Counted from the first letter of the stretch, positions 15,932 through 29,588 are shown. The stretch is 64,000 nt of DNA from Candidatus Fraserbacteria bacterium (GCA_947085185.1 CAMTVK010000003.1:96001-160000); one strand, 5' to 3'. Notes: generated by a model not told the origin, from the letters alone. Numbers and translations are program-made.

Positions 15932-17119
15932 ATGGAGAAGGTGCGCAAGTGGTTCACTGTTTCGGCCGTCTTGATGTTGATCTTGGTCTTTATCGTGGCT
16001 TTGGATAACTACAATCAAGAGTGGAAGCGCTATCAGCGGGCCTATCTCACGAAGGTCCTTACAGATAAAACTTTGGCCGAGAAGGGCTCGCTCTCGCTGC
16101 TCGATCGGCTCGTGATAGCGGTCAACGCTGAGATGAATCTTCAGATCAGAAAAGTCGTCACCGAGGTGGGGCGCAGCGCCGATCTGTGTATGACGTGTCA
16201 TGCCAACGTCGGCGTACCGGGGTTTACAGCCGAGCCCCTCAAAGATCTTTTGGAGACCCATAAAGCTATAAAAGTCATAGAGCAGATGCCGTTCGATCAA
16301 GTAGGGTGTACGGCGTGTCATGGGGGGAATGCTCTGGCGCTGCGTGCCGAGCCGGCGCATCACGAGATGCGGTCTCGCTTTGCCCAGATCTTTGAAGAGA
16401 GCGTGGAGCGATTGCGCTCAGAACGGTGGGCAGAGCGCCAGCGAGGGATCGAGCTCATTCGTTGGATGACTGCGAACGACTTTGGCTTTGTCTTCAACGC
16501 TCCCAAGGAGCAGCGCGAGCAAGCTCTCGCGCGCATTCTGGCGTGGTGGCAGCTCCACAAAGACACGTTCTTAGTCGAGGGCTTTGGGGAGCGCAGCTCG
16601 CCGTTCCGCACCGAAAACCCTCAAGCGAAGATAATCGAGCAGCGCACTGACGTCTCTCTCGCGGGCGAGCCGTTGCAGTTTGTCGGCTCGGCCACGTGCG
16701 TTGCGTGCCATGGACGCCCCGAAATCAGCGACGTCTACATCCCCGAATCGAGCAAGCGCCACGTCGAGATCTGGTTCAGGCCGGAGTTCATGACGAGCAA
16801 AAATATCGAAGAATTTAAAGATCATCCGTTTATAGACCAAGAGACGCTGAAGACCATGGACGTGACCTGCGAGGCGTGTCACGGTCCAGGGAGCGAATAC
16901 ACGAAGCTCATGCAGAAGGGGATGGCCCTCGAAGCCGCGGGCCAGAGCGTCGAAGCTGCTGCCCTTATCGGGAAGGCCAAAGAGCTTGCGCGGGCCAACG
17001 CCCGACAGAACATGAGCGAACATGACCCAGCCACCGGATACTCGCGCATTTGGGCGATCTTTGAAAGGCTGATCGAGAAGGCCCTCGCGGCCAAGGGACA
17101 GAACCGCCCCACCGAATAG
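15932..17119 (+). CDS. Membrane-anchored tetraheme c-type cytochrome
   Basis: N-terminal TM helix; four CxxCH motifs (CMTCH, CTACH, CVACH, CEACH); C-terminal pair resembles a c554-like domain. Confidence 0.88.
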   Translation: MEKVRKWFTVSAVLMLILVFIVALDNYNQEWKRYQRAYLTKVLTDKTLAEKGSLSLLDRLVIAVNAEMNLQIRKVVTEVGRSADLCMTCHANVGVPGFTAEPLKDLLETHKAIKVIEQMPFDQVGCTACHGGNALALRAEPAHHEMRSRFAQIFEESVERLRSERWAERQRGIELIRWMTANDFGFVFNAPKEQREQALARILAWWQLHKDTFLVEGFGERSSPFRTENPQAKIIEQRTDVSLAGEPLQFVGSATCVACHGRPEISDVYIPESSKRHVEIWFRPEFMTSKNIEEFKDHPFIDQETLKTMDVTCEACHGPGSEYTKLMQKGMALEAAGQSVEAAALIGKAKELARANARQNMSEHDPATGYSRIWAIFERLIEKALAAKGQNRPTE

Positions 17120-17124
17120 CTGTA

Positions 17125-17178
17125 TTGACAGGCGCCCCTGGATCTTTTAGAATAAGTCGGAGTCTTTTACTCGGAGTT
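17125..17178 (+). promoter_or_regulatory. sigma70 promoter plus probable IscR/Rrf2 operator
   Basis: TTGACA(17125)-17-TAGAAT(17148), followed by the imperfect palindrome AAGTCGGAGTCTTTTACTCGGAGTT resembling IscR type-1 sites. Confidence 0.6.
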
Positions 17179-17182
17179 GGAA

Positions 17183-17611
17183 ATGAGAGTGACACGCAAG
17201 AGCGATTATGGGCTACGGGCGTTGTGCACCCTTGCGCGCCACTATAACGGGGAGCCTGTCTCTATTGGGCAGCTTTCCGCAGAGCACAAGATTCCTGAAC
17301 CGTTCTTGGAGAAGATCATGCAAGAGCTGCGCGAGCACGGCTTGGTCGAAGCGACGCATGGGCGCGGCGGCGGATATCTGCTCAAGAGGAGCCCTTCGCG
17401 CATCTCGCTGCGCGAGATCGTGAAAGCTCTCGACGGCCCGATCGCGCTCGTGACGTGTTTGGACCCAGCCTTAAAGTGCTCCATCAAAGCGGGCTGCCCC
17501 ACAAGTTCTATCTGGGAGATTATTAACCAAAAGCTCGAGGAACATCTGGCTTCGCTGACGTTGGGCGATGTCGTCAATATGCACCACCCTGAACGGGTGA
17601 CCTCATCATGA
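17183..17611 (+). CDS. Rrf2-family (IscR-like) Fe-S transcriptional regulator
   Basis: MRVTRKSDYGLRAL, GRGGGY; three C-terminal Cys (CLDPALKCSIKAGCP). Confidence 0.88.
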   Translation: MRVTRKSDYGLRALCTLARHYNGEPVSIGQLSAEHKIPEPFLEKIMQELREHGLVEATHGRGGGYLLKRSPSRISLREIVKALDGPIALVTCLDPALKCSIKAGCPTSSIWEIINQKLEEHLASLTLGDVVNMHHPERVTSS

Positions 17612-18654
17612 CGTTAGACGAGCGAGCCCGCGCAGCCTTACACACTATAGAGATTCCTCGCGCTCACCGACCGCTCAGCGATCTTGTGGAAGCTCTCTCT
17701 ATCGATGGAGAGGCTGTCCATGTGCGGCTGCGCTTGCTCCCCGCTTATGCGTCCAAATCTCAGCTCAAAGCCTGGGTCGAACAAGCATTCCAAGGTATTT
17801 CTGAGATCAAGACGGTGCACGTCGAATTTGCCCAGGCTCCACGACAGGCGCCTCGGCCCCGCCTCCTCCATCCCACACAGAAGCTGCACTTTCCCCAGAT
17901 CGCTCATATTGTTGCGATCTTTAGCGGCAAGGGCGGGGTAGGCAAAAGCACCGTCAGCGTCAATCTCGCTGTAGCGCTCGCGCAGTCAGGAGCGCACGTC
18001 GGGCTCTTTGACGCGGACGTGCACGGACCGAATATTCCTACGCTTCTGGGGCTGAAAGAGCCCCCCACAGTGAAAGCCGGAAAACTCATGCCCATCTTCA
18101 AATACGGCGTCCACGCTATGTCTATTGGGCTCTTAGTGGGCGGGGGAGATCCGCTCATCTGGCGCGGCCCGATGATCTCCAAAGCGATCAATGAGCTCTT
18201 AGAGAGCACGGCCTGGCCGGAGCTCGAGTATTTGATTATAGATCTCCCCCCAGGGACAGGCGACGCGCAGTTGGGCTTGGCTCAAGACCTAGAGCTTTCC
18301 GGGGCGATCGCTGTGACGACCCCCCAAGAAGTCGCGCTCTCCGATGTGCGCCGGGGCATTGGAGCTTTCCAGAAGCTGAATGTATCTATTGTTGGGCTCA
18401 TCGAGAACATGGCGTATTATATCTGTCCTCAGTGTGGGCACAAAGACTATATCTTTGGGCAAGGGGGTGGCGCCAGCGAAGCCCATAGACGCCAGATCCC
18501 GCTGTTGGGGCAGATCCCCCTCGATCCGAAGCTCCGCGAGAACGGCGACGCTGGGGTGCCTATTGTGATCGCGGCACCGTCGTCACCCACAGCTCAAGAG
18601 TTCACCAAGATCGCCCAGGCGCTCATCGAACGATGGAACACACACAAGGGGTGA
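17608..18654 (+). CDS. Mrp/NBP35 (ApbC) Fe-S cluster carrier ATPase
   Basis: SGKGGVGKST, DADVHGP, IWRGPM, DLPPGTGD, ENMAYYICPQC. Confidence 0.93.
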   Translation: MTLDERARAALHTIEIPRAHRPLSDLVEALSIDGEAVHVRLRLLPAYASKSQLKAWVEQAFQGISEIKTVHVEFAQAPRQAPRPRLLHPTQKLHFPQIAHIVAIFSGKGGVGKSTVSVNLAVALAQSGAHVGLFDADVHGPNIPTLLGLKEPPTVKAGKLMPIFKYGVHAMSIGLLVGGGDPLIWRGPMISKAINELLESTAWPELEYLIIDLPPGTGDAQLGLAQDLELSGAIAVTTPQEVALSDVRRGIGAFQKLNVSIVGLIENMAYYICPQCGHKDYIFGQGGGASEAHRRQIPLLGQIPLDPKLRENGDAGVPIVIAAPSSPTAQEFTKIAQALIERWNTHKG

Positions 18655-18660
18655 CCACCA

Positions 18661-18966
18661 ATGACCGCTGACGATATCCGCGAGGTGATCCGCGAGAACG
18701 TCTTCGACCCGGAGCTGGGCTACAACGTCGTGGATTTGGGGTTGCTCTACGACGTCGACATCCGCGACGACAAGACCGTGCGTCTGGAGATGACATTGAC
18801 GACTGTAGGCTGCCCGCTCTACGAGCAGATCCAAGCTGACTGTGAGCGTGCGATCAAGGAACGCTTTGGGGAGGACGTCACCGTTGAGGTCGATTTCGTC
18901 TTCGATCCGCCGTGGAGCCCAGAGATGATGTCGGAAGAGATCCGCGCGGAGATGGGATTTATCTAG
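18661..18966 (+). CDS. DUF59/SufT Fe-S assembly protein
   Basis: DPELGYNVVDLGL, MTLTTVGCP, FDPPWSPEMM. Confidence 0.92.
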   Translation: MTADDIREVIRENVFDPELGYNVVDLGLLYDVDIRDDKTVRLEMTLTTVGCPLYEQIQADCERAIKERFGEDVTVEVDFVFDPPWSPEMMSEEIRAEMGFI

Positions 18967-19599
18967 ATGGCTCGCTGTGTCTATTGTGGGAAGCGGGTGG
19001 GCAAGCGTGCTTGCCCGGCGCTGGGAGGGCTGATCTGTCCGTCATGCTGTGGGCAGCATCGCGGGATCGACATCAGCTGTCCGATCAGCTGCAAATATTT
19101 CAAGGCGCATGAGAGCTATCAGCGCGATCGGCTCGCCGACGAATTCCACGCCCTGTGGCGTGAGAAGACCGAATCCCTCTATAAAGCTGGCAAGGAGCGC
19201 GTGATCGATCTCATCGTCATGATAGAGATGCTGATCTATCAGTTCTATCGGGAGCGGGCCTTGGGCACAGACACCGATGTGCTCGAGGCGCTCGAAGCGC
19301 TCCGACGTCGGTTCAGCCCAGTGATGGTCATCGAGGCGGGGAGCACCGCGTTAGCTGCTCACATATGGCACGGCCTGCAAGAGTTTAAAGAATCCCTGAC
19401 TCCTGAAGAGGCCTCCGAGAGCTTAGAGAAGAGCTTGGAGATCTTCAGAGCCTACACGGACGCAACGCATCCCAGAAAGTATCTGCACGGGCTTTTGGGG
19501 CACGTCGCGCGATATTTTCAGCTTCCTCCGGAGATGACCACCAGCCCATCCCTCATTGCTACCCCGCAGATCGTCACGCCTCCTACTGCCAGGGGATGA
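18967..19599 (+). CDS. Hypothetical protein with Cys-rich N-terminal metal-binding domain
   Basis: Eight Cys in the first 40 aa; starts immediately after the SufT stop. Confidence 0.75.
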   Translation: MARCVYCGKRVGKRACPALGGLICPSCCGQHRGIDISCPISCKYFKAHESYQRDRLADEFHALWREKTESLYKAGKERVIDLIVMIEMLIYQFYRERALGTDTDVLEALEALRRRFSPVMVIEAGSTALAAHIWHGLQEFKESLTPEEASESLEKSLEIFRAYTDATHPRKYLHGLLGHVARYFQLPPEMTTSPSLIATPQIVTPPTARG

Positions 19600-20635
19600 C
19601 CCATTCCCACTGGGGCCCACGGAAGTACTGTCCAATAATAATGAGCGCGATCGCCGCTCCTATTAAGAAGACAAAGAGCGCTGTAGTCACCGGGCGGTCC
19701 CGCAGACGACGTCCCGGGGGCTTGCTCTTGTCTTTTCTCCAGAACTCCAGATAGGGCTCAATATAGGGGATCGCGATCAAGATCAAAATAAAGAGCGTGG
19801 GCGCGATCACGCCCCCAAGAGCCACGCTTGTCAGCGGCCCAATATTGGGAGAAATTGCTAACAGCTCTTGGATGCCCACAAAGTACCAAGGGGCTTTCTC
19901 GGGATTGGGCGTGAACGATGGGGTCGCCGGTTCTTGGAGTGGGGCATCGCGGAAGACTGAATAGATCCCAAGCCCCGCCGTCAATACAAACAGAATCGTA
20001 AACGCTACATAGAGAAAGTACGGATAGGTGATGATCTCTTCTTCTTCGGTGGGGAGGCGCTTGGCGAACGCTTCGAGGATCTTCTGGACTTTTTCGTGGG
20101 TGAGCTCAAACTGGGTTGGGATCTCTTTGGTCTTCTGCTCTTTGGAGACGTAGCTAAAGATCGTATAGAGAGCTTCAAAGTCTGAGGGGTCGCCGCCGCC
20201 ATCGAGCAAGGCTTCCACGCGATTGCTCAAGTCTTTGAGTCTCTTCACGGTCAGCGTCTGTCTGGAGGGCAGCTGGCGCAACGGGATCTTCTCGGCAGCG
20301 TAAGCCAAGACATCTCTCACGAGCCCTGGCTCGATCTGAAGAGCTTCGGCGACTTCGTAGCCTGGGATTTCTATCTCTATCTCTTGGGTGACGTTGATTT
20401 GACATGAGAGCCGCCAGCCCTGGCTGAGCTGCTCTTCGCCCAGGACGTCGAGCTCATTTTGATTGGGCTCTCCTCCGCCCTTGAAGACTCTGACGGCACA
20501 GGTCGAGCACTGCCCCTGGCCTCCGCACGTCGCAGGGAGTTGATCATCATAGCGATGCTCTTGAATGAGCTTTAAGAGATTGGTCCCTGGTCGGACGTCA
20601 AATTCTTTCTGGCCAAGAATGACGACCTTGGGCAT
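19583..20635 (-). CDS. [2Fe-2S] ferredoxin fused to cytochrome b C-terminal part (subunit IV/PetD-like)
   Basis: N-terminal CGGQGQCSTC...RLSC; C-terminal TM helices with DAPLQEPATPSFTPNPEKAPWYF (PEWY-position motif). Confidence 0.85.
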   Translation of the reverse strand: MPKVVILGQKEFDVRPGTNLLKLIQEHRYDDQLPATCGGQGQCSTCAVRVFKGGGEPNQNELDVLGEEQLSQGWRLSCQINVTQEIEIEIPGYEVAEALQIEPGLVRDVLAYAAEKIPLRQLPSRQTLTVKRLKDLSNRVEALLDGGGDPSDFEALYTIFSYVSKEQKTKEIPTQFELTHEKVQKILEAFAKRLPTEEEEIITYPYFLYVAFTILFVLTAGLGIYSVFRDAPLQEPATPSFTPNPEKAPWYFVGIQELLAISPNIGPLTSVALGGVIAPTLFILILIAIPYIEPYLEFWRKDKSKPPGRRLRDRPVTTALFVFLIGAAIALIIIGQYFRGPQWEWVIPWQ

Positions 20636-20636
20636 A

Positions 20637-21266
20637 CTAGCTGGGGTTCACCCCTGCCTTGGCGGCTTGTTTGAGTCTCTCTAAGACGGGCGTGCCGCCG
20701 GGGTAGCACCCATCGAGCTTGGCTTTGCCGGCGACGACAGCCTCCGCAAAATCCTCGCACGTGGGATACCCGCAGGCCAGACAATCAAAGCCGGGCAAGA
20801 CCGCGCGGAGCTTGGCCGCCGCGGGCGAGAGCGCTGGAGCTTTGGGAGCTTCAGGAGCTTGCTCGACCTTGGGCCAGGACATGACTAACGGCTTAAAGAG
20901 CTCGATCACAAGATCGCTCTTCATCGAGATCTGGCATGATAAGACCCAGCCCTCCTTGCGCAGCTTATCGCTGAGGGGGCCGAGCATCGCCGGGGTGATC
21001 TGCTCTGGAGCCAGCCCTTCTAAGACTTTGACGCGGCAGGTCGCGCACGTGCCCTTGCCGCCGCACTGCGCGAACAGATCATACCCGGCTTTTTTGAGGG
21101 CTTGCATCAGGTTCTGCTCCAGGGGTAAGACCAGCTCATTGCCGTCGTTGACGATCTTGACGCGTGCCTCTCCCTCAGCTGTGAGCACATTCTTTAATAT
21201 CCCTAACACAAGAGCTACCGAGATGGCCATCAGGGCCATCGTCGCTACTGGTACGAGATAGACCAT
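20637..21266 (-). CDS. Membrane-anchored Fe-S protein: NqrF-like TM+[2Fe-2S] domain plus RnfB-like [4Fe-4S] domain
   Basis: TM helix, CGGKGTCATC...LSC, then LPGFDCLACGYPTCEDFAEAV...CYPGG; no FAD/NADH domain. Confidence 0.82.
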   Translation of the reverse strand: MVYLVPVATMALMAISVALVLGILKNVLTAEGEARVKIVNDGNELVLPLEQNLMQALKKAGYDLFAQCGGKGTCATCRVKVLEGLAPEQITPAMLGPLSDKLRKEGWVLSCQISMKSDLVIELFKPLVMSWPKVEQAPEAPKAPALSPAAAKLRAVLPGFDCLACGYPTCEDFAEAVVAGKAKLDGCYPGGTPVLERLKQAAKAGVNPS

Positions 21267-21293: not shown

Positions 21294-21890
21294 TCATCCT
21301 CCAAAGTCGCGAATATTGATCATTCCCGAAAAGCCCACGAAGCTCATGGCCATGAGGCCCGCAATGATCAGGGCGATCCCTGGGCCTTTGAGCCCCTCAG
21401 GGATGGGAGCAAAGCGCAGGCGCTCTCTCATAGCCGCCATCAAGATGATCGCCAAAGCCCAACCGACGCCCCCGCCAAACCCAAACGCCACGCTCTCGAG
21501 AAACCCCAAATTCCATGTGGCTAACGCGAAGAGCACCCCGCCCAGAATCGCACAATTCACTGTGATCAAGGGCAAGAAGATCCCTAAAGAGTTATACAAA
21601 GCCGGGAGAAAGCGCTTCATGAACATCTCCACGGCCTGGACCAAGAACGCGATCGTCACAATATAGACGATGAGCGACAGATATCCTACTCCCAAGGGAT
21701 CGAGCACAAAGTGCTTGATGAGCCAATTGGCAGGCAGGGTCATGGTCAGCACGAAGATCACCGCCATGCCCATCCCCGACGCCGATGCGTATTCGCCCGA
21801 GACGCCAATGAACGGACAGATTCCCAAGAACGTCGTGAGCAAGATATTATTCGTGAGGATCGCGCCAAGCACAATGAGAAAGATGTCCAT
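21294..21890 (-). CDS. rnfA: RnfA/NqrE membrane subunit
   Basis: NNILLTTFLGICPF, LPLITVNCAILG, AMRERL. Confidence 0.92.
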   Translation of the reverse strand: MDIFLIVLGAILTNNILLTTFLGICPFIGVSGEYASASGMGMAVIFVLTMTLPANWLIKHFVLDPLGVGYLSLIVYIVTIAFLVQAVEMFMKRFLPALYNSLGIFLPLITVNCAILGGVLFALATWNLGFLESVAFGFGGGVGWALAIILMAAMRERLRFAPIPEGLKGPGIALIIAGLMAMSFVGFSGMINIRDFGG

Positions 21891-21893
21891 AAG

Positions 21894-22574
21894 CTACGCG
21901 CCTCCTCCGATCTGGCCGCCGGGGGAGAAGTGCCTTACGATCCCGACATACAGCCCCACAAGTAAGAACGCCCCCGCCGGGATGATCATGATGACCCAGG
22001 GAGTCCAGCCGCTGAAGATCTGAATCCCGAACAAGCTGCCAAAGCCCAAGAGCTCCCGAACGATGCCGAGTATCGTCAGGGACATCGTGAACCCTAGCCC
22101 GACGCCGATAGCGTCGAGCGCCGACAGTCCTGGGCCGTTTTGGCTGGCGAACGCTTCGGCTCGTCCCAGCACGAAACAGTTCGTAATGATCAATGGGACG
22201 TAAGGCCCAAGCGCTGCCGACAGCGGCGGCAGATACGCGCGCAAGAAGATATCGACGATCGTTACCCAGAACGCAATGATGATCATATACGCGGGCAGGC
22301 GCACTTCCGCGGGGATAACGGTGCGGAGAGCTGCTACGGTGGCGCTTGAGGCCACGGTCGCGATCAGCGTCGCAAGCCCTTGGGCCATGCCGTTCATGGC
22401 CATGTTCGTCGCGCCCATGGTGGGGCACATCGCCAAGATCATCCGGAAAGTTGGGTTGTCGTCCCAGATATCGCGAACGAGTTCCTTCCACCCTTTGGTC
22501 TGGGGCAGCCGCTGGGGGAACGGAATAGCCGGCGCTGATGCGCGTTGCATCACTGCTGTCTTCACTTCTGCCAT
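21894..22574 (-). CDS. rnfE: RnfE/NqrD membrane subunit
   Basis: NPTF...MCPTMGAT, PLIITNCFVLGRAEAFA, RELLGFGS, PAGAF; ATG 22574 has SD AAGGAG. Confidence 0.92.
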   Translation of the reverse strand: MAEVKTAVMQRASAPAIPFPQRLPQTKGWKELVRDIWDDNPTFRMILAMCPTMGATNMAMNGMAQGLATLIATVASSATVAALRTVIPAEVRLPAYMIIIAFWVTIVDIFLRAYLPPLSAALGPYVPLIITNCFVLGRAEAFASQNGPGLSALDAIGVGLGFTMSLTILGIVRELLGFGSLFGIQIFSGWTPWVIMIIPAGAFLLVGLYVGIVRHFSPGGQIGGGA

Positions 22575-22648: not shown

Positions 22649-23347
22649 TCATCGCTTTTTCTCTAGAATTTTTCGCAAGTTCGCGATCGCCTGGTTGAGC
22701 AGATCTCGCACCGTCGTGGACGTATACGTAGCCCCGGTGATGGCGTCAAACTGATTGGGGGCTTTGGGGGAGCTGGGATCGCGGAACTTCACAAACTCGA
22801 TGCGCGGCTCGGTCTTCATCCCTTTGAATTGGCTCCAAAATTTCTCTTCGGTCATGCGGAAGCCCAACCCTGGGGTCTCGCCGATCTCGAACGTCACGAC
22901 ATGCGCCCCGATAATCTCTGACAGATCGGGCTTGAGCGCCACTTGCATGGCGACGAGTCCCTGAAAGCCGCTGCCTTGGATGCGAATAACGTACGCTGAG
23001 AGCTCCCCGCCGATCTTGTCTTTGTAGACCTTCCAGTACGTAAAGCTATCGGCCTTGACCTCCTCGATGTGCTCTTTGAAGTACTGATCTATTTGGGCGG
23101 GGGAGAGCACAGGCAGCCCCTCTTGGGGGAAGAGCTCGTCAGCAGAGTACTCGCCCAGCGCCACAAGGATGCTCGAGCGCAGGCGGGCCTTGGCGTTCGC
23201 TTCAATAGTTGCTTTCGTCACTTCATTGACCACTGCGAGCAGTCCCCCCGCTATGGCGGCGATCGCTGTCAGCACCACGATCATGCGCCACTCGTGAGGC
23301 CCGATCAGCTTCTTCTTTCTCTTTTGGGGTTGTGCTGGCTCAGCCAT
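22649..23347 (-). CDS. rnfG: RnfG/NqrC covalent-FMN subunit
   Basis: N-terminal TM helix, GSGFQG, ETPGLG, FDAITGATYTS flavinylation motif. Confidence 0.92.
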   Translation of the reverse strand: MAEPAQPQKRKKKLIGPHEWRMIVVLTAIAAIAGGLLAVVNEVTKATIEANAKARLRSSILVALGEYSADELFPQEGLPVLSPAQIDQYFKEHIEEVKADSFTYWKVYKDKIGGELSAYVIRIQGSGFQGLVAMQVALKPDLSEIIGAHVVTFEIGETPGLGFRMTEEKFWSQFKGMKTEPRIEFVKFRDPSSPKAPNQFDAITGATYTSTTVRDLLNQAIANLRKILEKKR

Positions 23348-23353
23348 ACAAGA

Positions 23354-24469
23354 TCACCTCTTTTGGAGAGCTGGCGCCGAGAAGCTCTTGGGGATCGTGA
23401 ATCTGTCAATCAACGGCGTGAACATATTGCCAATTAAAATAGCGAACGTCACCCACTCGGCATAGCCGGTCAGCCCACGCCCCAGTACCGTCAACACTCC
23501 CAACATTATACCGAAGATCCATCGTCCGCGGACGGTCATAGGGCTCGTGACAGGATCGGTCGCATTGAGAAATGCCGCAAAGAGCAAGCCCCCACTGAGC
23601 ACGGCGTAGATCCCATCAGGGAATCTCACAGGATTGATAAAGCTGAGAAACTGCGAAGTCAGCCCAGCAGTAACGATCATAACTATTGAGACGCGCCAGT
23701 CAATGATCCGTGCATATAAGAGATAGAGTCCGCCTAGGAGAACGAGCAGGGCCGAAGTCGCTCCCAGGACATCCGCCCGACCAAAGCCCGTCACGAGCGT
23801 AAAGAGCTCGGGATTGGCAATGTCTGGGGAGTTGAACGCCCCCAAGGGGGTCGCCTTGGCGATGGCGTCTATGCCCTTTACTGATTCGGGAGACCAATGC
23901 ACAAAACCTCCAAGTCCGTCCGTCAACGGGTTGAAGGGCATGTACCAGCGCGTTGTCATAGCCGACGGGAACGCTAAGAGTAAAAACGCCCGCCCGCTGA
24001 TCGCCGGGTTGAAGATATTATATCCCGACCCGCCGAAGAGTTCTTTGACCCCAATGGCGAAGAAGATCCCCATCGCGACCATCCACAGGGGCAGCGTTGG
24101 GGGCAGCGAGAGCGCATAGAGAATGCATGTCACCAGCAGACCCTCGGTGATCTCGTGGCGCCGGACTGCACAGAAAGTAAACTCGACAGCCATCCCGACA
24201 AGATAAGTCACTACGATGATCGCCAGGGCACGCCATCCGTAAAAGTAGATGCTCGCCAGGGCCAGAGGGATGCAGACGAGTATAGGAGAGCCCATGTAGC
24301 GTTGCATTCCCAAGGCGTCCCGAATATAGGGGGCTTGGCGAGCTGGCTTATCGCTGCCGCCGAAGATCGAATCTTTGAGACCCTCCCATAGGATAGCCAA
24401 GCCCTCGGCACGGCGGGCGTGGAGGTCGCGATGCACCCTCTCGAAGAAATTATAGATCTTGTCTTTCAT
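23354..24469 (-). CDS. rnfD: RnfD/NqrB membrane subunit
   Basis: APYIRDA, KELFGGSGYNIFNPA, DAIAKATPL, ATDPVTSP; ATG 24469 overlaps the rnfC stop (ATGA). Confidence 0.92.
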   Translation of the reverse strand: MKDKIYNFFERVHRDLHARRAEGLAILWEGLKDSIFGGSDKPARQAPYIRDALGMQRYMGSPILVCIPLALASIYFYGWRALAIIVVTYLVGMAVEFTFCAVRRHEITEGLLVTCILYALSLPPTLPLWMVAMGIFFAIGVKELFGGSGYNIFNPAISGRAFLLLAFPSAMTTRWYMPFNPLTDGLGGFVHWSPESVKGIDAIAKATPLGAFNSPDIANPELFTLVTGFGRADVLGATSALLVLLGGLYLLYARIIDWRVSIVMIVTAGLTSQFLSFINPVRFPDGIYAVLSGGLLFAAFLNATDPVTSPMTVRGRWIFGIMLGVLTVLGRGLTGYAEWVTFAILIGNMFTPLIDRFTIPKSFSAPALQKR

Positions 24470-25890
24470 GATGCCTCCGTGAGAACCTTGCGTTTGCCTT
24501 CGCGAATCTGTTCTAAGAGCGGGATCTTGCTGGGGCAGACATAGGCACACAACCCGCACTCAATGCACGCAAAGAGATCAATGCTTTGCGCTTCGCTCAC
24601 CATACCGTGGGCAGAGTATTCCCCAAGCAGCGCCGGCACTAAATTCTGCGGGCAGACGTCCACGCAATAACCGCACTTGACGCAGGGCCTGGGGTTTCCG
24701 TTCAAGCTGGTCGTGGCGCGCTTGTACTTGACCCACGGCAGACTCAGATACACCCCCGTGAACGAGTCGCGATCGAAGCCCGGCCCAACGACGGGAAAGA
24801 GCTCATGCTCTGGTTCTTTGAGGGCGATCACAGCGGGGATCTCTCTGGTGATGGGGCTATCGAGATCCCCCTGGGCTTGTCCACGCATGACGCTTCCCGC
24901 GATGATGCGCCCGTTGCCCTTCAAGTTCTTCTCTAAAAGATTCCCGATGGGGGTGCCTACCCGAACCCGATAGTTCCCAGGCTCTTTTACAGCTGAGCCC
25001 GCTACGGAGACGACGCGCTCGACGAAGGGCTTGCCCTCTACGACCGCTTCATAAGCTGCCACACACTGCTGGACATCACACACGACGCACCCGACGTCAG
25101 TGGCGTAGCCTCGCTGCGGGAGCAGGAGCCCCAAGAGCGTGCGCACAAGCACCGCGTCGTCGCCCTGAGGGTATTTGGGACGCAATTGATGGATCGTGCA
25201 CCAGTCATAGTATTCGAGGCGCTCGATGAGCTCTTCGTAGATTCTCGGCTTGTTATATCCCAAGCCAATGTGCACTTGGACGTTCCCGAGCGCTTGGCGC
25301 AGGATCTTGATGCCGTTGACAAATTTGTCGAACTCTTCGTAGAGCAACTGATCGGGTGCTTCGCAGAACGGCTCGGTCTCAACGGCGTTGATTAGTAAAT
25401 AGCGAATCTTCTCTGGAGTGGCTGGGGAGGAGTGATAGATCGTGGGGAAGCCCGCTTGGCCTCCCGAAGTGACCCCGGCTTCGTAGAGGATTTTTCCCAG
25501 TTCTTCTGGGGGCAGTTTTTCGTAGTTGGCCGGGCGATCAAGCAAGAGCCAATCGTCTTTGCCGTCGGACTCGATCTCGACGCAGAGGGCCTCGCCACCT
25601 AACGGATGCGGGCGCTTCTCTATCTTCACGACCCTTCCGGAGATGCTTGCGTGGACAGGGGTCGAGGGTCTGTTGGGGTCGGGCTCGTTGCGCCCGATGA
25701 CCTGCCCCGTCTTGACGCGGTCGCCCTCTTTGACAGTCGGCACGACTTCGGCAGAAAAGCCCTGACGCAAGGGAATCAGAACTCTCGGGGGCAGCGGCGC
25801 GGATGCGAGCCGCTTGCCGCGCGGCGTCCCCTCAAAGAGCCCAAAGTAATGGCCACCCTTGAACGTCTTGAGCGCTCCTAAGACAGCCAT
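24466..25890 (-). CDS. rnfC: RnfC/NqrA-like subunit with two [4Fe-4S] motifs
   Basis: PVHASISG, AGFPT, LINAVETEP, KYPQG, CVKCGYCVDVCP and CIECGLCAYVCP. Confidence 0.9.
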   Translation of the reverse strand: MAVLGALKTFKGGHYFGLFEGTPRGKRLASAPLPPRVLIPLRQGFSAEVVPTVKEGDRVKTGQVIGRNEPDPNRPSTPVHASISGRVVKIEKRPHPLGGEALCVEIESDGKDDWLLLDRPANYEKLPPEELGKILYEAGVTSGGQAGFPTIYHSSPATPEKIRYLLINAVETEPFCEAPDQLLYEEFDKFVNGIKILRQALGNVQVHIGLGYNKPRIYEELIERLEYYDWCTIHQLRPKYPQGDDAVLVRTLLGLLLPQRGYATDVGCVVCDVQQCVAAYEAVVEGKPFVERVVSVAGSAVKEPGNYRVRVGTPIGNLLEKNLKGNGRIIAGSVMRGQAQGDLDSPITREIPAVIALKEPEHELFPVVGPGFDRDSFTGVYLSLPWVKYKRATTSLNGNPRPCVKCGYCVDVCPQNLVPALLGEYSAHGMVSEAQSIDLFACIECGLCAYVCPSKIPLLEQIREGKRKVLTEAS

Positions 25891-26649
25891 TTAGCGTCGC
25901 TTCCTTTCTTCGGTCCACCAGGGTTTGCTGTACTCGTCCTTGCGAATTCTCCAAAAGTGCAGCGCCACGAGAAAGATCAACGCCATCGGCAGCACAAAGA
26001 TGTGAATGACGTACCACCGCAAGAGCGAGGGCTGCCACAGGTCCGTGCCCCCCAAGAGTATCTGTTTCACATACGGCCCGATGATTGGTGTGCCGTCCGC
26101 GATATTGCTGGCGATCTTCGCTGCATAATAGCCCAACTGGTCCCAGGGCAGAATATACCCACTGAATGCAGAGAGCACCGTGATGACGAAGAGCAAGACC
26201 CCGATGACCCAGTTGAATTCTCTGGGCTTTTGATAGGATCCGGTGAAGAAGACCCTCAGCATATGGAAGAACACGGCGAAGACCATCAGCTCGGCGGCCC
26301 ATTTGTGCATATTGCGCATGAATCTTCCCAAGGGCACAGCGTTGACCAGCTCGCGGATAGAATCATAGGCACGCTCAACTGAGGGCACATAATAGAACAT
26401 TAAAAAGACCCCGGTGATCAAGAGAATCACAAAGAGCCAGGTTGCGATCACGCCCATCCACATCCAATTGTAGCTGAGTCGGGCCGATTCTTTATGGATC
26501 TTCGCGGGCAGGATATGCACGAAGAAGTTGCGCCTATTGAGAGCGAGCCGGTCGGCTTCAGTCTGGGGCAGCCCCTCGCGGCGGAAGATGGAGAGCCACA
26601 CGCGCGAGCGCCGTATACCCTGGCCCAGCAGAAGGAGTCTGTCCATCAT
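25891..26649 (-). CDS. Cytochrome b N-terminal part (cytochrome b6/PetB-like)
   Basis: ITGVFLMFYYVPS, RNMHKWAA...FHMLRVF, PREFNW, GYILPWDQ, WYVIH...LHFWRIRK (four heme-b His). Confidence 0.93.
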   Translation of the reverse strand: MMDRLLLLGQGIRRSRVWLSIFRREGLPQTEADRLALNRRNFFVHILPAKIHKESARLSYNWMWMGVIATWLFVILLITGVFLMFYYVPSVERAYDSIRELVNAVPLGRFMRNMHKWAAELMVFAVFFHMLRVFFTGSYQKPREFNWVIGVLLFVITVLSAFSGYILPWDQLGYYAAKIASNIADGTPIIGPYVKQILLGGTDLWQPSLLRWYVIHIFVLPMALIFLVALHFWRIRKDEYSKPWWTEERKRR

Positions 26650-27197
26650 GAGAACTTGATGTCACTCCCGTCGGGGATGGGGCCTTCGATAGATCGGCCG
26701 TCGGCCGTGAGATACTGAGTACTTGGGACGACTTTGGCCTTATCGACTTGGAGACGGCCGTCGGGGGTGAGGGTGAGCTCATAGAAGGGCAGGGGTCGAG
26801 GCGCTGGGCCGCCCAGGACTCGCCCGTCGCGGGCAAAGACGCTCCCATGACAGGGGCAGAGCGCGTGCACCACGGGATACTCTTGACTTGGCGGCCCAAA
26901 GGGCTTATAGCTGCACCCCAGATGGGTGCAGACCATAGAGAGGGCCTGAAATCCCAAGGGCGTTCGGAAGATGAAGACCTGCTTCGCTTCGAGAGGGCGC
27001 ATCTCTCCGACCTGATAGTCACTGGGGCGCCCTACGGTGAACGTCGTGGTGGGCTCATAGGTCAGGTGCGGCTTCAGATAATACGGGACGCTCTGGGCCA
27101 CACCACCCAAAGCCAACGCGAGCGATCCCCATCCCAGCCACCCGAGAAAGCGTCGCCGCGTCAGCGGGCTCACTCTTGGGTCTCTGTCCGCCTCCAT
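26646..27197 (-). CDS. Rieske [2Fe-2S] subunit (PetC/QcrA-like) with Tat anchor
   Basis: TRRRFL twin-arginine motif, CTHLGC, CPCHGS, GPAPRPL. Confidence 0.94.
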   Translation of the reverse strand: MEADRDPRVSPLTRRRFLGWLGWGSLALALGGVAQSVPYYLKPHLTYEPTTTFTVGRPSDYQVGEMRPLEAKQVFIFRTPLGFQALSMVCTHLGCSYKPFGPPSQEYPVVHALCPCHGSVFARDGRVLGGPAPRPLPFYELTLTPDGRLQVDKAKVVPSTQYLTADGRSIEGPIPDGSDIKFS

Positions 27198-27227: not shown

Positions 27228-27256
27228 ATTATATTACAGCCCCTTTGCGCTGTCAA
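27228..27256 (-). promoter_or_regulatory. Perfect-consensus sigma70 promoter of the Rieske/cyt b-Rnf operon
   Basis: TTGACA-17-TATAAT on minus strand, overlapped by an ACAGC...GCTGT inverted repeat; SD AAGGAG precedes the Rieske ATG. Confidence 0.8.
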
Positions 27257-27371
27257 ACTTCTCTGATCTTCTACTCTATTGAGGGGATCTTTTGCCATGA
27301 TCTGCGTCATCCCTGAGGATGACGTCGGTCATGTGATGGCCCTCGCTCTTTTTGTTATGATTATTATATCA

Positions 27372-27962
27372 ATGTTTACTGGGATTGTCACGGACACCGG
27401 CGAGGTGCTCACGGCGCACGCGACGCGGCTTGTCATCGCTACCCCTAAGCTCTTTGGAGCATTAGAAATCGGGCGGAGCGTCGCGGTCAATGGAGCGTGC
27501 CTGACGGTCATCGAGCTCACTCCTGCCGCGGAGAGCTTCGCGGCAGAGCTGAGCCCAGAGACCATCCGGCGCACGAACTTGGGAGCCCTGCGCCGCGGCG
27601 ATCTCGTCAATTTGGAGCTGCCCTTACGATTTTCTGATCGTCTCGATGGGCACTTCGTGCTGGGGCACGTGGACACCGTTGGGGAGGTCGTCTCGATCTC
27701 TCGCACAGAGAAGGGCGCGGTCTTCCGGTTTCGCGTCGATAAGAGCTACTCACACTATCTGGTCGAGAAGGGCTCGATTGCCATAGATGGGATCAGCTTG
27801 ACGATCTTCAATATCTCTGATGGGGAGTTTGACGTGGCGATCATCCCTCATACGCTCGAGCACACGAACTTACGGGTGCGTTGCCCTGGGGATAGAGTGA
27901 ATGTCGAGTTCGACATTTTGGGAAAGTATATAGAAAGACTCTGCAAGGGAGGCTGCTTGTGA
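27372..27962 (+). CDS. ribE: Riboflavin synthase (alpha chain)
   Basis: MFTGIV N-terminus, [31 protein letters not shown]. Confidence 0.95.
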
Positions 27963-29188
27963 TGGGGTTTGCCAAGATCAAAGAGGCGCTGGAAGCGCTC
28001 AAGCGTGGTGAGATGATCGTCGTCGTAGACGACGAAGACCGCGAGAACGAAGGCGACGTCGTATTGGCAGCCCAGTTTGTCACCCCGGAGAAGATCAATT
28101 TTATGGCGAAGGAGGCCCGGGGGATCATCTGTGTGCCCATGACGGGGGAGCGGCTCGATGAGCTTGGGATCAAGCTCATGGTGCAGACGGATTCTGGGGG
28201 AAAGGGATGCGCGTTCACGGTCTCAGTAGACGCTCGCGAGGGGATCAGCACCGGGACGTCTGCGTACGATCGCGCCCATACTATTAGAACGCTGATCGCT
28301 CCCAAGACCAAGCCTTCAGATTTAGTCCAGCCGGGGCATGTCTTTCCGTTGCGTGCTCGGCCCGGCGGCGTCTTGCAGCGGGCTGGCCACACCGAAGCCA
28401 GCGTCGATCTCTGTAAATTAGCGGGGCTCTACCCTGCTGCGGTCATCTGCGAGGTGATGAACGAGGACGGCACGATGGCCCGGCTGCCCCAGCTGGAAAG
28501 ATTCGCACAGAAGCATAATTTGCTCATTATAAGCATTGCCGATCTCATTCGCTATCGCTACGAACGCGAGCGCTTGGTCGAGAAGATCGCCTGGGCCGAT
28601 CTTCCTACGGAGTTTGGGGAGTTTACGATCCATGCCTATCGCAGTCTCGTTGATGGAAAGGAGCACATCGCGCTGGTCAAGGGCGAGGTCACCGGAAGAG
28701 AGAACGTCTTAGTGCGGGTGCACTCAGAATGTCTGACAGGAGATGTCTTTGGCTCGCTCAAGTGCGACTGTGGGGAGCAGCTCCGGCAAGCCCTGCGCCA
28801 GATCGCCCATGAGGGTATGGGGGTCTTGCTCTATTTACGCCAAGAGGGACGCGGCATCGGCCTAGGAAACAAGATCAAAGCGTATCATCTCCAAGATAGA
28901 GGGCTGGACACGGTGGAGGCGAACCGGCAGCTCGGCTTTAAAGAAGATCTCCGCGAGTACGGCATCGGGGTACAGATTCTGAAAGATTTGGGGCTGAGCA
29001 CCATTCGAATTCTCACCAATAACCCCAAGAAGCTCGTGGGCATCGAGGCCTACGGCATCAAGATCGTGGAGCAACTGCCCCTTTTAGTCGCGCCCAACCC
29101 CCATAATTATAACTATCTGAGGACGAAGAAAGAGAAACTAGGCCACCAGCTCGATGCGATCTTCGCGAACTTCAGCAATGAGCCTTAA
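27959..29188 (+). CDS. ribBA: Bifunctional DHBP synthase / GTP cyclohydrolase II
   Basis: [43 protein letters not shown]. Confidence 0.96.
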
Positions 29189-29588
29189 GATCGCGATCGT
29201 TGTCAGTCAATTTCACAGAGAGATCACCCAAGAGATGCTCAAGGGCGCTCAAGAGCACCTGCGAGGCGTCGCCGAGACCGAAGTCTTCTGGGTGCCGGGG
29301 GCGTTCGAGATTCCAGGGACCGTCAAGGGGTTGGCGCAGTCGGGGCGCTATGACGGCATCTTGCCCTTAGGGTGTGTGATCAAGGGCGAGACTGCCCATT
29401 TTGAGCATATTGCCCGCGCCGTGACTGATGCGCTCATGCGCTTGACTGTGGAATGCGATACCCCAATAGTCTTTGGGGTGCTGACCCCCTACACCGAAGA
29501 GCAAGCGTGGGCACGCGTCTATAAGGGGGCTGAAGCAGCCAAGAGCCTGCTGGAGCTTATCACTCTGCGTCGGCGGCTCTCTTATTAA
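29178..29588 (+). CDS. ribH: Lumazine synthase
   Basis: [25 protein letters not shown]. Confidence 0.94.

Follow-up and report, generated by a model that had tools for sequence, protein, structure and literature searches.

We analysed a 64,000-nucleotide stretch of DNA from Candidatus Fraserbacteria bacterium (GCA_947085185.1 CAMTVK010000003.1:96001-160000), referred to here as the window. On its minus strand, an open reading frame (ORF) at 19583-20635 encodes a protein in which a predicted [2Fe-2S] ferredoxin precedes a predicted subunit IV of a Rieske/cytochrome b complex. The fusion is a genuine, conserved gene in Bipolaricaulota. In the lineage that carries it, residues expected at the quinone-reducing (Qi) site, on the cytoplasmic (N) side of cytochrome b, appear to have been lost. 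The low-potential electron may leave through the fused ferredoxin in place of the Qi site, and would then pass to the Rnf/Nqr-like module encoded alongside in the operon. We give this reading a little less than an even chance.

A ferredoxin joined to subunit IV

The fusion gene and its parts are as follows.

19583-20635, minus strand: fusion gene, 350 amino acids; [2Fe-2S] ferredoxin, five-helix domain and APWY-type subunit IV (translation, profile matches, homologues)
20360-20635, minus strand: Fer2 domain, residues 1-92, with Cys37, Cys43, Cys46 and Cys78 (Pfam and NCBIfam matches)
20036-20350, minus strand: soluble five-helix domain, residues 96-200, no recognised family (predicted fold)
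19583-20035, minus strand: subunit IV part, residues 201-350, with three membrane helices, the KAPWYF motif of the quinol-oxidising (Qo) site and Ala211 (alignment, hydropathy)

The frame starts with ATG and is unbroken. As an earlier note on this DNA had described, the protein carries CGGQGQCSTC (residues 37-46) and RLSC (75-78), then membrane helices with TPNPEKAPWYF (242-252). C37, C43, C46 and C78 are its only cysteines. This four-cysteine pattern recurred in 61 of 63 homologues; the other two are truncated at the N-terminus. Fer2 (PF00111) matched residues 8-83 (E 2e-10, 40.8 bits against a cut-off of 21), and the top NCBIfam match of the domain was the ferredoxin domain of NqrF. Profile and cysteine ligands together predict a [2Fe-2S] cluster.

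The note had also proposed a cytochrome b C-terminal domain. In the architecture search, Fer2 passed its threshold but Cytochrom_B_C (PF00032) gave a weak match to residues 236-339 (E 0.0029, 18.3 bits), below its cut-off of 20.7. ExtQ (NF040970) matched residues 204-348 (E 6.7e-12, 45.8 bits) without reaching the equivalog cut-off of 150. The b6f subunit IV model (TIGR01156) matched the same part below cut-off (E 7e-4), and APWYF aligned, at a weak E of 0.05-0.1, with PEWYF of solved bc1 and b6f chains. Identity as subunit IV was borne out in other ways. A profile of the fusion family retrieved 147 subunit-IV-like proteins (E 2e-29 to 5e-19), and the operon supplies cytochrome b6 and Rieske partners. 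Hydropathy placed three transmembrane segments at about 201-219, 271-289 and 316-334, with the Qo motif after the first. The N-terminal half profile of cytochrome b was also matched by 14 of 150 ferredoxin-free relatives. We conclude that the C-terminal part is, as predicted by motif and topology, an APWY-type subunit IV of a Rieske/cytochrome b complex.

The N-terminus of subunit IV faces the cytoplasm. By this topology the fused ferredoxin is likely to be cytoplasmic, where the note had put it, and hydropathy gave no further hydrophobic segment before the first helix. The intervening region, which the note took for a soluble linker of about 100 residues, is instead predicted to be a folded domain. 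It has 105 residues and five helices, and the predicted fold is of fair confidence (predicted local distance difference test, pLDDT, 79.5; predicted template modelling score, pTM, 0.69). There was no structural match at Z >= 5 among 48,161 chains and no usable Atlas match, which shows neither novelty nor absence of a known fold. With the whole fusion model, the first 50 Foldseek ranks were ferredoxin-domain matches only.

Homology searches returned 67 matches. Fusions accounted for 53 (47-99% identity, two of them N-terminally truncated). The remaining 14 were 10 proteins with the ferredoxin and helical domains only (199-208 amino acids), three cytochrome b/subunit IV proteins and one unrelated ferredoxin-bearing protein. 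Both organism-named matches were Bipolaricaulota. Among 151 genomes of the phylum, the fusion profile was open from end to end in 24 and spread over two adjacent genes in two. In these split forms (L017, L018), a separate 199-amino-acid gene before subunit IV encodes the ferredoxin, and the five-helix domain stays with it. All but one of the 26 carriers belong to the order of the window's genome (35 genomes, two of them outside the 151-genome sample). The fused state is kept in 24 of the 26 carriers, down to about 52% identity. A frameshift artefact was rejected, given the unbroken ORF, the 53 fusion homologues and the open frame in 24 of 151 genomes, so the note's reading of a true fusion holds.

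The architecture is rare. Just two of 1.84 billion cluster representatives passed E 1e-30, one a fusion and one the split ferredoxin part. The Fer2 profile of the family matched none of 150 other subunit-IV-like proteins. In the open literature, covered by titles and the starts of abstracts, no description of a ferredoxin-subunit IV fusion was found; subscription papers and supplements were outside this scope. An account of Acetothermia takes their Rnf as canonical, and its accessible text has no occurrence of "Rieske" (PMC9586279). An anammox paper (PMC5600118) has no occurrence of "Rnf" or "Acetother".

A 210-amino-acid protein with an N-terminal cysteine cluster is encoded at 18967-19599 (plus strand), overlapping the 3' end of the fusion by 17 bases. 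It matches no family above cut-off and is 71-76% identical in close relatives.

Quinone sites in subunit IV and cytochrome b6

The earlier note drew attention to the missing glutamate of the PEWY motif. The change itself was confirmed: the Qo motif of the fusion family is KAPWYF in 50 of 53 members, APWYL in two and KSPWYF in one. It deserves no special weight, and APWY was rejected as a novelty, because KAPWYF is common to 141 of 150 ferredoxin-free relatives and the motif defines a clade of cytochromes b already named in the accessible text of PMC4122944.

The N-side site tells a different story. We located the Qi position of subunit IV with chicken cytochrome b (PYYSFKD, 1bcc), whose aspartate has an established role at Qi. 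In the first helix, this residue aligned with the position six beyond the conserved proline. Glutamate occupies the position in 121 of 150 ferredoxin-free relatives (12 are gapped). Conversely, none of the 53 family members is acidic there; all have a small or hydrophobic residue, which is Ala211 in the window protein.

Cytochrome b6 was compared across 119 sequences, comprising 88 nearest relatives and 31 family members, after one ambiguous match (P0246) was dropped from 120. Position 47 is histidine in 84 of the 88 relatives but in none of the family. Position 64, where the cysteine for heme ci would stand, is glycine in 85 of 88 relatives and tryptophan in 30 of 31 family members; all 31 have tryptophan or tyrosine and none has cysteine. 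Loss of heme ci was rejected as a special feature because 86 of the 88 relatives also lack the cysteine. The four heme histidines are invariant, both in the family (31/31) and in all 119 sequences counted. His45 is likewise invariant (119/119), in an alignment holding no Kuenenia sequence. Arg236 is present in all 31 family members, at what we take to be the position of the bc1 Qi histidine. Of the Qi residues of canonical Q-cycle complexes (bc1, b6f, b6c), the heme-ci cysteine, the His/Asp pair and the subunit IV glutamate are all missing.

Models of the anammox complex offer a possible role for such residues. There, a histidine beside a glutamate and heme cN may donate a proton when quinone is reduced, and an extra heme is predicted on an N-terminal histidine at the dimer interface (Kuste4571 His43) (PMC12954380). 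By analogy, we infer that position 47 could correspond to the proton donor and His45 to the interface-heme ligand.

In these alignments the loss of Qi residues appears specific to the fusion-bearing lineage, split forms included. The note had suggested that the ferredoxin takes the electron instead of a quinone at Qi. Lineage-specific loss is what this idea predicts, and it was found; the transfer itself stands as a prediction.

The operon, its two forms and the metabolic setting

The fusion is the last of nine tightly packed genes on the minus strand, listed here from the promoter side with one further candidate subunit.

27228-27256, minus strand: candidate promoter of the operon, agreeing with the sigma-70 consensus in 12 of 12 bases and lying 31 bases ahead of the Rieske start (pattern match only)
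26646-27197, minus strand: Rieske protein with CTHLGC and CPCHGSVF (Ser-Phe signature) (profile, motif)
25891-26649, minus strand: four-helix cytochrome b6, ExtP-like, with four heme histidines, Trp64 at the heme-ci cysteine position and His45; the His47 of the clade is replaced (profile, alignment)
24466-25890, minus strand: RnfC, with a flavin mononucleotide (FMN)/NADH domain and two [4Fe-4S] motifs, above the rnfC cut-off (profile)
23354-24469, minus strand: RnfD, scoring above the rnfD cut-off; it has a stretch resembling NqrB (RRHEITEG), and its flavinylation motif, DAIAKATPL, is intact (profile, motif)
22649-23347, minus strand: RnfG-like FMN subunit with a DAITGAT motif; missing in the short operon form (profile, motif)
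21894-22571, minus strand: RnfE-like membrane subunit; missing in the short form (profile)
21294-21890, minus strand: RnfA-like membrane subunit; missing in the short form (profile)
20637-21266, minus strand: RnfB/NqrF hybrid, with a membrane anchor, NqrF-type [2Fe-2S] domain and RnfB-type FeS domain (PF04060) (profile)
15932-17119, plus strand: membrane-anchored tetraheme cytochrome c, a candidate c-type subunit (profile)

The start codon of rnfD overlaps the stop of rnfC. The window thus holds RnfC, D, G, E and A homologues with flavinylation motifs in one operon, as expected of Rnf. The B-position gene is unusual. It has no flavin adenine dinucleotide (FAD)/NAD domain and no polyferredoxin (no Fer4 domain). 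Against rnfB (TIGR01944) it scored 42.7 bits where 68.7 are required, over residues 147-201 only, and its NqrF match spans residues 9-123 of 209. It is neither an RnfB with polyferredoxin nor an NqrF with FAD and NAD domains. Its Fer2 domain is 39% identical to that of the fusion. The note's claim of a neighbouring Rnf/Nqr iron-sulphur (Fe-S) subunit proved right: the hybrid gene ends 1 base upstream of the fusion, and each carrier locus inspected has a hybrid as the next gene upstream (all 19 of one set and 11 of another, partly from the same genomes).

The hybrid varies between genomes, as seen at L009:8400-9773, L115:9678-10481 and L116:9346-10182. In L009 it is divided into two genes, most short forms anchor it in the membrane by several helices, and in family f5 the FeS domain is doubled. 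In family f3, the [2Fe-2S] and FeS pair occurs with a C-terminal extension at L126:8742-9716 (minus strand), in what looks by eye like a hydrogenase/complex-I-like operon without cytochrome b. Another f3 genome (L128, G160:C86) has rnfC-D-G with a hybrid-like gene lacking the FeS domain, and rnfE/A on another contig; no cytochrome b match was found in this genome.

All 25 carriers of the order have the tetraheme cytochrome c; in two distant genomes its gene and the Rieske gene are adjacent and divergent. COX1 was matched in the same 25 carriers (24 strongly, one marginally). The four f3 genomes have neither, and none has the fusion. In the window, the tetraheme cytochrome c gene is separated from the fusion by genes for an Rrf2 regulator, Mrp/ApbC and SufT-like Fe-S assembly proteins (17177-18966, plus strand), whose order recurs in relatives of the genus. 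Riboflavin synthesis genes adjoin both operon forms: divergently upstream in the window (27279-29588, plus strand), and downstream in most short forms, behind two other genes, one of them YidC-like by eye.

The two forms divide the 25 carriers of the order into 14 with rnfA/E and 11 with no rnfA/E anywhere in the genome. In all 11 short-form loci, RnfD is followed directly by the hybrid, and RnfG was not found in any of the five short-form genomes searched. Both forms keep a six-gene core of Rieske, cytochrome b6, RnfC, RnfD, hybrid and fusion. ApbE occurs in 13 of 14 long-form carriers and in none of the 11 short-form carriers. The RnfD motif D-x-x-[AST]-x-A-T-P-L is intact in all eight rows with rnfG in the cluster and altered in all nine short-form rows. 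In a FastTree phylogeny of four genes, the short forms fell into two separate groups, one nested among long forms. This tree had 21 rows, was rooted on G152 by choice and had no formal clade test; five long-form carriers and the short-form G064 were left out.

Complex I genes follow a related pattern. NuoD was above cut-off in exactly the 11 short-form genomes, and NuoA was found in 10 of them; NuoF was above cut-off in none of the 35 genomes of the order. In the genomes inspected, nuoCDI (four loci) is separate from nuoABHJKLMN (four loci, in part identified from translations), and neither group has nuoEFG alongside. The nuoC-nuoD-nuoI cluster (L164:3201-6867, L166, L169), away from the membrane-arm genes, is directly behind folC in three of four loci. 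Genome G000 had no NuoD or NuoA match at all. All genomes compared for an exchange of rnfGEA and complex I are related and 61-97% complete.

In 19 of 20 loci the CPCH of the Rieske protein is followed by Ser-Phe; the remaining locus has Ser-Tyr. This signature is predicted to give a potential near +260 mV in the accessible text of PMC4122944. The anammox Rieske Kustd1480, with the same pair, was measured at +335 mV, and heme bN of that complex was estimated by symmetry at -315 to -345 mV (PMC12954380). Together, a high-potential Ser-Phe Rieske and menaquinone make a low-potential heme branch possible. In G000, MenA and MenG were above cut-off (region L153:1435-2331, G000:C14). Ring synthesis was not found: MenD was missing from G000 and MqnA/D from all 35 genomes. 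Only G155, of five genomes examined, had MenD above cut-off. Menaquinone in G000 is therefore likely, by prediction, to be made from a scavenged ring. A quinone-free complex, raised by the missing MqnA/D and MenD, was set aside since G000 has MenA and MenG.

Acetyl-CoA synthase was matched in 13 of 25 carriers, including G000 and all 13 genomes of its genus, and in none of the other 12. All four f3 genomes have the synthase without the fusion. Hence, a link of the fusion to autotrophy was not supported. NDH2_C was matched in seven of 25 carriers, by a model so insensitive (three of 14 controls detected) that absence of the type II NADH dehydrogenase (NDH-2) carries no weight. The five genomes examined for 2-oxoacid:ferredoxin oxidoreductases all had them. 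G000 also encodes another Rieske/cytochrome b pair, whose Rieske is of the Gly-Phe type and whose motif is PPWYF (L196:5067-9527, G000:C9). Two multiheme cytochromes follow it, and flanking genes are Crp/Fnr-like by eye.

A proposed route for the low-potential electron

Bifurcation at the Qo site requires an acceptor beyond heme bH. In the scheme we propose, menaquinol would be oxidised at the APWY Qo site and one electron would pass via the Rieske protein and cytochrome c to the oxidase. The other would move from heme bL to bH, perhaps with a dimer-interface heme on His45, then to the fused ferredoxin and the RnfB/NqrF hybrid. In the nine-gene form it might return to menaquinone outside cytochrome b by the ion-pumping path of RnfA/E-G-D; in the six-gene form the return could run via RnfC-RnfD or a headless complex I. 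RnfC would feed electrons from NADH into the same Fe-S wire. The return through Rnf/Nqr-like subunits is the less secure part, suggested because RnfD has an NqrB-like stretch. Presumably, this region lines the quinone site of NQR; the residue matching NqrB Gly141 is methionine here. A quinone sink is favoured over NAD+ because 12 of 25 carriers gave no match to acetyl-CoA synthase and NuoF is never above cut-off. As a whole, such a complex III without a Qi site, with return by a separate ion pump (RnfA/E-G-D or headless complex I) and RnfC as NADH inlet, is unlikely. If true, the Q-cycle would be closed outside cytochrome b, gaining an extra pumped ion.

For the ferredoxin as electron exit speak the lineage-specific changes at Qi, the persistence of RnfC, RnfD and the hybrid where rnfGEA was lost, in two separate tree groups, and the presence, in the fusion carriers of the order, of both the tetraheme cytochrome c and a heme-copper oxidase. 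A number of points weigh against it. Qi sites vary among cytochrome b families, so a remodelled site could still work. The heme-ci cysteine is kept by just two of the 88 nearest relatives, and its loss is not lineage-specific. The 105-residue domain stands between the ferredoxin and the membrane part, and the monomer model of the whole fusion is of low global confidence (pTM 0.38) and does not place the domains. For an electron to return from bH by way of a pump, the hemes would have to lie at about -300 mV, and return via complex I at two protons per electron is, by our estimate, hardly affordable. The genes for menaquinone ring synthesis are missing as described, and G000 has its second Rieske/cytochrome b. 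The exchange of rnfGEA for complex I is not clean: four of 14 long-form carriers (G137, G157, G021, G032) have a second NuoD-like gene just below cut-off (370-381 bits) together with NuoA, and the 11 short forms derive from about two events. Lastly, Ser-Phe Rieske proteins are general in the APWY clade, according to the accessible text of PMC4122944. A complex prediction for the ferredoxin-helical part with cytochrome b6, subunit IV and the hybrid (score 0.00, mark 0.32) was counted neither way.

Electrons could instead flow inward. NADH (via RnfC) or reduced ferredoxin would reduce the hybrid, the fused ferredoxin, heme bH and finally, at an N-side site that has been remodelled, menaquinone. 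This would make the complex an NADH/ferredoxin:cytochrome c oxidoreductase, similar to ferredoxin feeding b6f. With ordinary potentials, electrons run downhill from NADH to heme bH. The lack of a NuoF above cut-off across the order, and of any NuoD or NuoA match in G000, the 2-oxoacid:ferredoxin oxidoreductases and the RnfC motifs retained in both operon forms all fit. However, this flow requires a functional Qi site, where the relatives' glutamate and histidine are gone and tryptophan replaces glycine. It would also bypass the ion pump of the same operon, and NDH2_C matches indicate other NADH entries in seven carriers, even with the insensitive model. We regard it as unlikely. The same changes at Qi, and the Rieske signature, also fit an outward wire to NAD+, in which bifurcation at Qo drives reverse transfer via ferredoxin, hybrid and RnfC to make NADH. 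This resembles the anammox proposal, which also offers supporting energetics (PMC12954380). RnfC is never lost, and acetyl-CoA synthase is present in G000 and throughout its genus. It is the 12 carriers with no synthase match that make this route improbable; their oxidase-bearing cells should need to oxidise NADH, not synthesise it. Moreover, the fusion is distributed like the oxidase and cytochrome c and not like autotrophy, as the f3 genomes illustrate.

The ferredoxin may also be no more than a tether, an additional Rnf-side Fe-S subunit fused to the next gene. It would assist supercomplex assembly and exchange no electrons with the hemes, the two machines meeting in the quinone pool. The separate ferredoxin-helical gene of L017 and L018, the 39% identity between the two Fer2 domains and the occurrence of the hybrid's domain pair without cytochrome b in f3 (L126) are in its favour. 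Even so, a tether does not account for Qi residues having disappeared in just the lineage concerned, its split forms among them; a Qo site with no N-side acceptor would stall, and the fusion has been retained in all but two of 26 carriers across much sequence divergence. We give it little credence, the same as for the wire to NAD+. Hence, the fused ferredoxin as exit for the low-potential electron remains our preferred, if tentative, reading.

Several known systems share parts of this operon. In the cluster OP4C155-0162 of Ca. Acetothermum autotrophicum, rnfCDGEAB is joined, operon-like, to genes for a Rieske protein and cytochrome b (Takami et al. 2012, PMC3267732). Compared by gene content, not by sequence, it corresponds to our first eight genes. 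Unlike us, its authors read an ordinary ferredoxin:NAD+ pump. The accessible text of that paper has no mention of a ninth fused gene, the hybrid 'rnfB', Qi changes or a short form; its supplements were outside the scope. As far as the accessible texts describe them, the anammox complexes Kuste4569-4574 and Kustd1480-1485 (PMC12954380, PMC5600118) likewise have a b6-type cytochrome b, subunit IV, multiheme cytochrome c and high-potential Rieske, with a cytoplasmic Fe-S/flavin NAD(P) module proposed as low-potential electron acceptor (PMC12954380). They are defined by heme cN with a glutamate, a five-helix subunit IV and one large FAD-containing NAD(P) oxidoreductase (PMC12954380); none of these three features is found here. 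In their place, the heme-ci cysteine and glutamate are gone, a three-helix subunit IV carries the ferredoxin, and RnfC/D serves as partner, accompanied by an ion pump in some cases only.

The APWY clade, including Geobacter ExtP/ExtQ, is described as sharing KAPWYF, a split cytochrome b and a Ser-Phe Rieske (Kao and Hunte 2014, PMC4122944). ExtP and ExtQ are the top NCBIfam matches of our cytochrome b6 and subunit IV, both below cut-off. Membership of the clade is putative, assigned by motif, ExtP/ExtQ similarity and nearest matches rather than by a tree with reference members. Unlike the fusion family, none of 150 relatives examined has Fer2, and most keep the N-side glutamate and histidine. 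PDWF-FeS cytochromes b are also fused to non-Rieske Fe-S domains, in one instance to ferredoxin and flavin oxidoreductase domains; as far as the accessible text goes, they have another Qo motif and no Rieske gene in the cluster (PMC4122944), whereas Rieske and Rnf subunits are both present here. Rnf and Na+-NQR share the gene order C-D-G-E-A-B/F with this operon; RnfC and RnfD score above their cut-offs, and the long form also has ApbE and the flavinylation motifs. The differences are the B-position gene, lacking both the RnfB polyferredoxin and the NqrF FAD/NAD domain, the NqrB-like stretch in RnfD and the missing G, E and A in 11 of 25 carriers. Unlike in Na+-NQR, the place of NqrA is taken by a subunit that scores as RnfC and has two [4Fe-4S] motifs. 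Judged by its encoded subunits, the operon is neither a full canonical Rnf nor a Na+-NQR.

Of what is described here, the eight-gene cluster (PMC3267732) and the APWY clade (PMC4122944) were already known from the accessible texts. Our data suggest that a plain ferredoxin:NAD+ Rnf pump is not the full account of this cluster. Well-studied Rieske/cytochrome b complexes all close their cycle at the Qi site. Cytoplasmic export of the low-potential electron in anammox bacteria is an unproven proposal, and those who modelled it saw its main problem in preventing quinone reduction on the N-side (PMC12954380). The lineage described here shows the sequence change that such a scheme needs: the N-side glutamate and histidine are gone, and a ferredoxin sits on the helix that bore the glutamate. 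Since the ferredoxin, the Rieske protein and the b6/subunit IV pair are small, and the natural split and shortened forms provide controls, the question is testable.

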